Shown in pieces: positions 15,001-18,000 of a DNA stretch of 35,295 nucleotides. The position numbers are program-made. Source of the stretch: Candidatus Aenigmatarchaeota archaeon (lineage in GTDB: Archaea > Aenigmatarchaeota > Aenigmatarchaeia > CG10238-14 > SpSt-28); NCBI GenBank assembly GCA_032249395.1, contig JAVVFY010000008.1, positions 1 through 35,295 on the forward strand, in the 5' to 3' direction. Numbering within the stretch: the first letter of the stretch is position 1; every line of letters begins with the position of its first letter.

Positions 15001-18000
15001 GAGACCCAAAACATTTTGCAAAATTTTTAATGCTATCTCTGGCCTCCTCAGGTAGTATAGAGGGAGAAACTCTTGTATTAAATTCCAAGCTGAAGAGGGA
15101 AGTTGTTCAACAAAAAGTTGAAGAATATATAAAAAGATATGTTTTTTGTAAAGTTTGTAATGAACCTGATACTAAATTAATAAAGGAAGATAGAATTTAC
15201 TTCATTCGTTGTGAAGCTTGTGGTGCAAGTTATGCCGTCAAATAAATTTTGGAGTAGATTGATAAAGACTAGATTTGAGACTTTGGTAGCAATATGTGAC
15301 GAAGAACTTATTGGAAAGGAGATTAAGATAGAAAAAAATTTTAGCACGTCCGTTAGCGAAAGGTTTTATAAAGAGAAGTTAATTGATGAAAAAGAAGCTT
15401 TAGATCTTATGGAAAAAGCAACTATAGGAAATTTGTTAGGAGAAAGAATAATTAAGTTGGCTATAGAAAAAAATATTATTTCTCCGGAAGGAGTAATTTT
15501 AATTGGTGGAATACCACATGCACAATTTGTTAAGATCTAGAAAGGCCCAATTCTATATCCTTTCTGTAGTCGGAATAGTTACAATCTTTTATGCAATAGG
15601 CAAAAGTCTAACACCAAATATAATAATAGATACATCTGATGTTGCTCTAAGAAACGATTATTTTGTTTTTAATAATATTGTCGAGAAGACTCTAAAAACT
15701 CTGGATGCCTCCAAAAGTTGTGAAGATTTGAGATTCAATTTGGAAGAATTTAAGAATATTGCAACAAGAGCTTTTGCTCCCAATTTTAGAATAGAATATT
15801 CTTATTCGATAGTTTCTTGTAGTGATTCTACAAGATCAGCGACTGTAAGTTTCAATATTACTCTATATTCAATAAATTCAGAAATTGGTACAACATTTAC
15901 AAAAAATGTAAATTGGTAGGCTGTGCCCTCCATAACCCACCTTCTGTTTTAGGTAGCATTCGTCTAAGCGCCATTTAAGCTTGCATCTCATTGGCTGCGT
16001 GGACCCGTTTCACCCTTTAGCAAGCAACTCATATTTCAATCATCGTTAGCGCTTGCTAAAGGTCTCGTTTCTGATGTCCACGCGAGGCTTCTCAGCCTCT
16101 TCTTGCCTCAATGGGTGGAATTTCCTCACCTCTGCTTTTTGGCAGAGGCGAAGCTACCTGGAGGGCTCAGCCTACCAAAATATTTTGGGAAACAAACTAT
16201 TTAAAGTTAGACCTTATAAATCTATAGAATGAAGGAATCCAAAGGAAAGTCTATAAAAATTAACATACCTGCTATAACTTTTGGTAATCGATTTTGGAAA
16301 ATGTTATCGTTGGTTTTGTTAGTTGCTTTAGTTGGAAGCATTTATATGAATTTTAGGGGAGTTTCTTTTTCTGGACAGCTTTCTTCAACTGATGTTGGAA
16401 AGAAAGTTATTGATTTCATAAATAATAATTTGGTGCAACCAGGAACTTCCGCTTCTCTAGTTTCTGTAAAAGATATGGGTAGTTATTATGAAATTATAAC
16501 AAGTTATCAAGGACAACAAATTCCTGTTTATGCTACTAAGGATGGAAAAATACTCTTTTTACAAGCTATAGAAATGACAGAAACTCAAAAAACTCAGACT
16601 CAAACCACGACACGGCAACAAACTCAAGATATACCTAAGAGAGATGTTCCAGATGTAAAAGTTTTCATAATGTCTTATTGCCCATATGGAATTCAAGCAG
16701 TAAAGGCTCTGTTGCCTGTTATGAAATTATTGGACGGAAAAGCTAATATAACAATCCACTATGTTGATTACATTATGCACGGAGAAAAAGAGGTTTATGA
16801 GAATTTAAGACAATACTGTATACAGAAAGAACAAAGAGACAAATTCTATGATTACATGTTGTGCTTTGTCCAAAACGGGGATTATCAAAAATGTTTGATT
16901 GAATCAAAAATAGATGTCAATAAGCTAAATGTTTGCATGAATGAAACAGATCAAAAGTATAATGTCACAAAGTATTATCAAGATAGAAACACTTGGTTGG
17001 GTGGAGCCTATCCACCTTTCTTGGTTGAGAAAGACTTGAATGATAAGTATGGTGTACGTGGATCACCAACAATAATAATAAACGATAAAGAAGTCAGAGT
17101 GAATAGATCGCCAGAAGCGTTTAAACAAACAATATGTCAAGCATTTACGACTCCACCAGCCGAATGCAATCAAATCTTATCAACAGAAACGGCATCTCCA
17201 GGTATAGGTCCTTTGACAGGTGGATCAACTTCTAGCGGCTCTTGTGGATAGAAAAGAATTTTTTGATTATTTCCAAACACTCTTTACCATAATCAGTCAA
17301 TTCATAATAAACTCTTTTAGGTTTTTTTGAAACCTCAATCTTTTTTATAACACCTTCTTTTATCAATACCAGTAGAGAATAATTAACAGAAGGAGAACAA
17401 GCATTGCAAACCCTTTTTAAATCGTTAAAACTACGTCTTATACCATCTTCCAGAGATAAAATTATCTTTAGGTTTGTTTCATTACCAAATATTCTTGCCA
17501 TTTTGCCTATTAGGTTATCCTTTTCTGGCATCATGAATAATATTTAAATACCTAAAGTATAAAAATTATACTGGGTGTGTGTTTATGGTAGCGGACAAAG
17601 AAGAGGAAAGATTAATGAAAAAGAAGTTAGAAGAAATGAAAAAAAGATTTGGCTTAAAAGAAGATAAAGCCAAAGATTTTGAAATAGAAATAGAAGTTGG
17701 TGATGACGACTTTCAAGAAAAAGTTATAGAGATGTCTAAGAAAGTTCCAGTTTTAGTAGATTTTTATGCCTATTGGTGTCCACCATGTAGAATACTTTCT
17801 CCAATACTAGAAAAAATAGCCAAGGAATATAATGGAAAGTTTATATTGGCAAAAGTTAATGTTGATGACGCTCAAATTACTGCTGAAGAATTTGGAATAA
17901 TGAGTATTCCAACTGTTGTTTTATTTAAAAACGGGGAGCCTATAGATTATTTTGTTGGCGCTCTTCCCGAAACTCAAATTAAAGATTGGTTGAATAGGAG

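Follow-up and report, generated by a model that had tools for sequence, protein, structure and literature searches.

The 35,295-nt stretch of DNA analyzed here (the window, from a Candidatus Aenigmatarchaeota genome, G000) carried an RNase P RNA gene of reduced form. Two findings on this RNA are worth following, namely, the wide distribution of the form in DPANN archaea and a kink-turn consensus at the P5/P7 junction, which links the catalytic and specificity domains. By its sequence, the junction matched the standard kink-turn definition (PMC9371926; PMC4919917), the canonical helix being P7 and the non-canonical one P5. On the comparative evidence, we considered it reasonably probable that the RNA functions in a type M-like manner, that it was reduced stepwise by vertical descent, and that the P5/P7 kink-turn is bound by an extra L7Ae and serves as a hinge.

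The minus-strand locus at 15913..16178 was a genuine RNase P RNA gene. The archaeal model RF00373 matched 15921-16170 on this strand (116.1 bits, E = 4.7e-32, model positions 1-288, gathering score 84), the regions CR-I to CR-V and the P4 pseudoknot were all located, and the predicted fold was far better than those of shuffled sequences (z-score of -9.3). The ends of the gene were inferred from the pairing of P1. A putative TATA-box-like element (16198..16205, minus strand) was noted 19 nt upstream of the 5' end of P1 by sequence reading. A convergent open reading frame (15503-15919), for which the NCBIfam search returned no match, overlapped the 3' end of P1 with its last codons and stop (15913-15919, 7 nt). 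In the metatranscriptome of one hot-spring run, three contigs of relatives covered 15945-16075. The longest contig showed 11 differences in 103, retained the bulged strand of the P5/P7 junction with G instead of A at L1, and converted the third P15 pair from U-G to C-G. These data consisted of contigs, which yield neither the ends nor the strand of a transcript, have a depth that is no measure of expression, and may originate from DNA; they gave weak support, and to the structure of the RNA only.

All elements were read on the minus strand. The 5' strand of P1 (16159..16178) paired with 15932-15913, where A16167 lay opposite A15924 in an A-A mismatch (the L9 receptor) and the final 7 nt of the 3' strand (15913..15932) fell within the end of the convergent frame. 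The 5' strand of P2, J2/3 and the P3 hairpin (16128..16158) were placed by the RF00373 alignment and the fold, and CR-I with the 5' strand of P4 (16114..16127) by the alignment and element location. The strands of P5 (16113-16110 and 15987-15984) and P7 (16107-16105 and 15995-15993) were set by constrained folding and covariation. Between them lay the two strands of the junction: G16109 and A16108 (16109-16108) on the non-bulged 5' strand and, on the 3' strand (15992-15988), a bulge of 3 nt with U as its last base (15992-15990) followed by G15989 and A15988 (15989-15988), so that the bulged strand of the kink-turn spanned 15984..15995. In the constrained fold, a 5-nt purine linker (16100..16104) occupied the site expected for P8, where genus g4 has a hairpin, and one hairpin remained between P7 and P10/11, as the survey had reported. 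This hairpin (16084..16099) was identified as P9 by the fold and because its GAGA loop and the P1 A-A mismatch form a described motif pair (PMC2615603); its identity as P8 was ruled out on the same grounds. The two features co-occurred in 7/7 genus g1 RNAs, and neither was present in the 8 RNAs of genera g2, g3 and g4, for two of which the P1 register was read by eye. The specificity domain continued with the 5' strand of P10/11 and CR-II (16063..16083), P12 (16014..16062), and CR-III with the 3' strand of P10/11 (15997..16013, constrained fold), P10/11 being an uninterrupted helix of 8 bp. Read by eye, P12 contained a distal KT3-like kink-turn (16047-16026) and a plain 3-nt bulge at the proximal KT2 position; the double P12 kink-turn (KT2/KT3) described for type M was therefore absent. 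The distal kink-turn alone was seen by eye in G000 and genus g1 (7/7), and both kink-turns were seen in g2 and g3 (6/6). J5/15 (3 nt) and a short P15 (15970..15983) had no L15, P16, P17 or P6, and the last segment (15934..15969) comprised CR-IV, the 3' strand of P2, CR-V and the 3' strand of P4, without P19. The survey had stated correctly that the 39-position P15-P17 block of the alignment was reduced to 5 bases. Its 4-bp P15 was wrong, as three standard pairs enclosed a 5-nt loop and a fourth pair would be U-U. The P15 segment measured 11 nt in G000 and 7-13 nt in 15/15 family RNAs.

The G000 RNA resembled the type M RNAs of M. jannaschii, Methanococcus maripaludis and A. fulgidus, as described in PMC3579882 and PMC6565675, in lacking P8, L15, P16, P17 and P6, in its length of about 250 nt, its short P15, the absence of P19 and the uninterrupted P10/11, and in the combination of a GAGA L9 and P1 mismatch with five proteins and CCA-less tRNA genes. 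It differed in its P7 of only 3-4 bp, in its single P12 kink-turn instead of a double module, in the phylum of its host, and at the P5/P7 junction, where a 2x5 kink-turn loop was found instead of the 5'-side bulge without a 3' joining region of type M. According to PMC3579882, other archaeal RNAs have no 3'-side joining region between P7 and P5; by contrast, 15/15 family RNAs had one of 5 nt. By analogy, we infer that the RNA works like type M while departing from it in two respects, having neither the double P12 kink-turn nor a direct junction of P7 with P5. It was also distinct from type T, since CR-II, CR-III and P12 were present, as was Rpp21. A published type M variant (A. profundus, A. 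veneficus and Ferroglobus placidus; PMC3579882) has lost P16/P17/P6 and kept P8. Genus g4, most of family f3, and f6 resembled this variant, and P8 was likewise variable among close relatives; unlike it, G000 had no P8, and the P5/P7 motif occurred in 0/28 Archaeoglobaceae. In type A RNA (Pyrococcus furiosus; PMC5499556), an L7Ae-bound kink-turn near the catalytic domain, KT1, organizes the P6 region. KT1 lies within P16/17, which G000 lacks, whereas the P5/P7 motif occupies the point at which type A RNA begins the 5' strand of P6.

The spread of the reduced form was assessed in 101 parsed loci out of 121 fetched from the phylum, exclusive of the weakest RF00373 matches; the 20 unparsed loci were left out except L017 and L041, which were read by eye. 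Named RNAs with close resemblance to those of the sister families f2 and f3 bore the label Aenigmatarchaeota, in line with the phylum of G000. An RNase P RNA match of 230-252 nt was present in 15/19 family genomes, in agreement with the survey. The two deletions that it had described for the family fared differently: loss of P16/P17/P6 was found in 15/15 primary loci, but loss of P8 in 13/15 only, as genus g4 (G009 and G010) retained a P8 of 5-6 bp. Accordingly, the type M-like label suited the anatomy of G000 and of 13/15 family RNAs but not the family as a whole. Nor were short RNAs a trait of the family, given that the best match measured at most 265 nt in 37/42 other matching genomes of the order. 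A short P15 with loss of P16/P17/P6 was observed in each of the 41 loci parsed elsewhere in the order (10 in f2, 30 in f3 and 1 in f5). P8 was absent from 8/10 f2 loci, the single f5 locus, and 4/30 f3 loci (4 instead of 5, because the script misread L023 as having one hairpin), and a regular P8 was present in 25/30 f3 loci by fold and in f6. Thus, P8 varied within the family, within two further families of its order, and within the Archaeoglobaceae, the last case having been published already (PMC3579882). The other orders of the phylum included 27 parsed loci with a long P15 region, many with the type A P16/P17 pattern, and 18 with a short one and the same loss of P16/P17/P6. Micrarchaeota were drawn evenly, and 27 of the best-scoring 30 of 60 matches combined a single hairpin with a short P15. 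A pattern scan chosen for short P15 gave one hairpin in 34/35 parsed Micrarchaeota among the matches listed, and the short form also appeared in Undinarchaeota and Iainarchaeota loci. A reduction specific to the family was thus ruled out by the order-wide loss of P16/P17/P6 and the short forms of Micrarchaeota. As controls, one hairpin was recovered in 24/25 Methanococcales loci and two in 24/28 Archaeoglobaceae loci, the latter in agreement with the P8-bearing type M variant (PMC3579882); among the evenly drawn Micrarchaeota and these controls, L391, L422, L428 and L451 appeared misfolded or misparsed.

Conservation at the P5/P7 junction was examined in the family and beyond. The G-A positions and the bulge U were invariant in 14/14 distinct family RNAs, and the seven flanking pairs were paired in 98/98 cells with 24 double changes. 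None of 500 shuffles reached this level, in a test that is inflated by relatedness, and slid partners were 20-50% paired. RNAalifold returned the same 2x5 loop unprompted. By a fixed-register test, the motif was present in 15/15 RNAs of the family, 9/10 of f2, 4/30 of f3, 1/1 of f5 (with a weak P7) and 3/3 of f11, and it was also seen by eye in f6. It occurred in none of the 27 RNAs of the phylum whose P15 region is long and in 0/53 RNAs of Methanococcales (25) and Archaeoglobaceae (28); it was found only where P16/P17/P6 were absent. The canonical motif was missing from 26/30 f3 loci, 8 of which retained the bulged strand only, and hence the motif is dispensable within the order. Moreover, its presence in P8-bearing RNAs (g4, f3 and f6) showed that it does not track the loss of P8, and compensation for P8 loss specifically was ruled out as its role. 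Among 39 distinct canonical cases, L2 was a purine in 39/39, L1 was a purine in 35/39, and L3 was U in 39/39, the last count being drawn from RNAs preselected for G-A pairs and a paired C helix, in which kin are not independent. The 3b-3n pair was G-C in 20, G-U in 10, A-U in 3, A-G in 4 and A-A in 2. Micrarchaeota had a variant form in which the non-bulged strand carried one additional A; it was found in 15/30 best-scoring loci and, in the pattern sample, in 27/35 among the matches listed, with L3 = U in 25/27 and a covarying P7.

The P5/P7 motif shared the canonical helix, 3-nt bulge, tandem G-A/A-G pairs and non-canonical helix with standard kink-turns (Kt-7, U4 snRNA and box C/D; PMC4382518), and most relatives had the G-C 3b-3n pair of U4, while four had the A-G pair of Kt-7. 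In contrast to these, the kinking and protein binding of the P5/P7 motif are predicted, and its non-canonical helix, P5, lies four pairs from the tRNA-anchoring J5/15. Kink-turns with a Watson-Crick or G-U 3b-3n pair fold poorly without protein (McPhee 2014, PMC4382518), and by these rules most P5/P7 motifs would need protein to fold, in a U4-like manner. Other kink-turn sites were variable. P12 was shortened to a hairpin, with its kink-turns gone, in L043, L045, L047, L054, L060, L133, L149, L174 and L198; L043, L045, L047 and L149 keep the P5/P7 motif, which would then be the sole L7Ae site. In the g4 RNAs L005 and L012, P12 seemed to bear a second kink-turn-like loop of opposite orientation.

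The protein complement was as the survey had stated it: Rpp21, Rpp29, Rpp30, Pop5 and L7Ae were all encoded in G000, each above its Pfam cut-off, and the L7Ae bore the NExxKxxxR binding motif. In the family, Pfam matches were obtained for Rpp21, Rpp30 and Pop5 in 16/19 genomes each and for Rpp29 in 17/19. An absence of Rpp30 from genus g4 (Pfam 0/2) was considered and rejected, as a divergent copy lay beside Pop5 in G009 (E = 1e-7); the protein search in G010 gave no convincing match. Both Rpp30 and Pop5 were highly divergent in this genus. A protein-only RNase P (HARP) as a back-up was ruled out because G000 had no PIN_5 match; one of the 19 family genomes had a partial match of 38 residues. 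None of the 45 tRNA calls in G000 encoded CCA, in keeping with the loss of L15, along the lines of the argument made for M. jannaschii (PMC6565675).

In M. jannaschii, the tRNA is measured between two anchors without CCA pairing, and the orientation of the domains depends on protein (PMC6565675); the L8-P4 contact is lost in type M (PMC8457005). A further mark of type M RNA is that it does not cleave in trans when proteins are absent. The G000 RNA retained CR-I to CR-V, the 3-nt J5/15 and the L9-P1 motif pair. By analogy, the acceptor and T arms of the tRNA would be measured between the J5/15 adenine and the T-loops of CR-II/III, no pairing with the 3'-CCA would occur, and Pop5-Rpp30 and Rpp21-Rpp29-L7Ae would hold the two RNA domains. 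The reduction may have proceeded stepwise and vertically, with P16/P17/P6 lost first (order-wide or earlier) and P8 lost repeatedly thereafter. The junction vacated by P6 would have turned into a kink-turn bound by an extra L7Ae, and L7Ae at this site would fix the angle that the specificity domain makes with the catalytic domain, as a substitute for the P6 and L8-P4 struts that were lost. Since the L7Ae site in P16/17 aids the formation of P6 (PMC5499556), the new site would relocate a role known from type A.

The P5/P7 motif might instead be a tandem G-A loop that is flexible or bends modestly, or a contact for Rpp29 or Pop5-Rpp30, in a type M-like RNA reduced vertically all the same; we regarded this as unlikely, though well short of negligible. 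The degenerate or 5'-bulge versions carried by many f3 RNAs and the extra A on the non-bulged strand of the Micrarchaeota form would suit such a loop. However, a plain loop would not require an invariant bulge U and purines at L1 and L2, which L7Ae-bound kink-turns do need. The Watson-Crick or G-U 3b-3n pairs of 33/39 cases, which predict poor protein-free folding (PMC4382518), can be read either way: they speak for a mere G-A loop, but the U4 and box C/D kink-turns, which depend on protein, also typically fold poorly in ions alone (PMC4382518). An L7Ae-bound kink-turn was thus the preferred reading of the motif.

The relations of the families were taken from an EF-2 tree, EF-2 being chosen because the operon in the Rpp29 neighborhood was broken up in the family; this tree rests on a single gene, and its backbone was weak, with f2 split by f17. 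Genus g4, which keeps P8, was sister to g1, which has lost it (100%), g3 formed a separate clade, and the family fell in a 100% clade with the mostly P8-bearing f3, f6 and f2g14. According to this placement, the family has lost P8 two or more times, or g4 has regained it. In a maximum-likelihood tree of 116 core RNA positions, the family joined the rest of its order (UFBoot 76) and was separated from Methanocaldococcus and Archaeoglobaceae. An AU test on the 116 columns, with a suboptimal free search, failed to reject clades uniting the family with type M RNAs (p = 0.67 and 0.47). The survey had held that the reduced form was reached independently of Methanococcales and Archaeoglobus. The P8-bearing sisters and the RNA tree spoke for this claim, whereas the AU test left shared descent unrejected; hence, an independent origin is likely but unproven.

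Lateral acquisition of the RNA gene from a type M host or neighbor, either one of the Methanococcales or an A. fulgidus-like archaeon, appeared very improbable. The AU test left a clade with Methanocaldococcus or Archaeoglobaceae standing, and a relative of the stretch occurred in one hot-spring run, a type of habitat shared with Methanococcales and A. fulgidus-like thermophiles. A transfer of this kind was proposed for A. fulgidus by Chan et al. However, the maximum-likelihood tree placed the family with its own order, and the closest RNAs were those of the same genus and of P8-bearing f3, at an identity of 0.80-0.93 compared with 0.63-0.70 (values inflated for long partners). Furthermore, a donor without P8 could not have yielded the P8-bearing RNAs of the family, and the P5/P7 motif was found in none of the 53 RNAs of the putative donor groups. 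A form without P8 and P16 that was ancestral to a wide DPANN group, with P8 or P16/P17 regained in places, seemed marginally less credible still. The short form in 27/30 best-scoring Micrarchaeota and in Undinarchaeota and Iainarchaeota loci would accord with it, but the 27 long-P15 RNAs of the phylum, many of type A pattern, and the regular P8 of f6 and most f3 RNAs (25/30 by fold) argue for loss, and repeated loss is simpler than repeated regain. Stepwise vertical reduction therefore remained the preferred course.

The EF-2 sequences themselves showed two peculiarities. Frames of about 1,180-1,235 aa carried an insertion of about 500 aa near the N-terminus, patchily distributed (G000:C3 about 76300-79900, L337; also L338-L340, L343, L344, L350, L355 and L361), which is probably an intein. 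L351, L354 and L356 (G099, G158 and G041) contained 1, 2 and 6 internal stops in short extra stretches, which may be either assembly errors or small introns interrupting a protein-coding gene.

Type M has so far been treated as a rare euryarchaeal form, explained partly by lateral transfer. A full-text search, chiefly of open-access main texts, found no paper on a type M RNase P RNA in DPANN, and the RNase P papers searched made no mention of Micrarchaeota. According to PMC6380272, the DPANN RNase P searches of its authors excluded the RNA, and PMC13462272 (2026) still lists the RNA types A, M and T. A full-text search of the RNase P literature, chiefly open-access main texts, found no description of a kink-turn at P5/P7 and no value for the P5/P7 angle in solved structures; in the available part of Wan 2019, the kink-turn was placed in P12 only. 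The same reduction, with intermediates, extends across DPANN, with repeated loss of P8 among close relatives, and provides a natural series in which RNA struts are handed to proteins on the way to a eukaryote-like RNase P. It is possible, if somewhat less likely than not, that these RNAs form a distinct DPANN class in which an L7Ae-bound kink-turn acts as an obligatory hinge clamp 4 bp from the tRNA anchor. Such a class would span a large part of Aenigmatarchaeales, family f11 and roughly half of the Micrarchaeota. In g2 and g3, where the L9-P1 motif pair is lost by sequence, the orientation of the domains would then have no RNA-encoded determinant other than the clamp. The hinge kink-turn may have arisen separately in two phyla after the loss of P6. 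If this is true, L7Ae would have both a new location and a new function in RNase P. The P12 sites known so far lie far away from the active site and can largely be dispensed with, and removal of the P12 kink-turns did little harm in M. jannaschii (PMC9371926); the hinge site would thus allow a direct test of the effect of L7Ae on catalysis.

Several other RNAs were observed during the comparison. The g2/g3 RNAs L002, L007, L011, L013, L014 and L015 were without P8, the GAGA L9 and the P1 mismatch, and in several of them P3 was a tetraloop hairpin; no known RNA contact between the domains seems to be left in these six. Some Aenigmatarchaeota showed the opposite, type T-like reduction, in which P16/P17 were kept and CR-II and CR-III were unrecognizable (L033, L035, L069, L077, L078, L081, L097 in f17, L103 in f28, L110, L114 in f7, and f22-f25), and the specificity domain of L103 was almost gone. 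A second RNase P-like RNA in G014, L016 (G014:C18:6544-6778, minus strand, 81.9 bits), had a P1 that nearly abutted CR-I, no evident P2/P3, and two remaining hairpins in the S-domain. It was flanked by frames resembling prolyl-tRNA synthetase and MinD (named by eye) and probably comes from a contig of another organism; if real, its catalytic domain is very reduced. The RNAs L149, L168 and L023 were at odds with their genome labels, namely, an f2-like RNA in a Saccharibacteria bin and Woesearchaeota-like RNAs in a Methanosarcinales bin and in G151, which is likely due to binning contamination.
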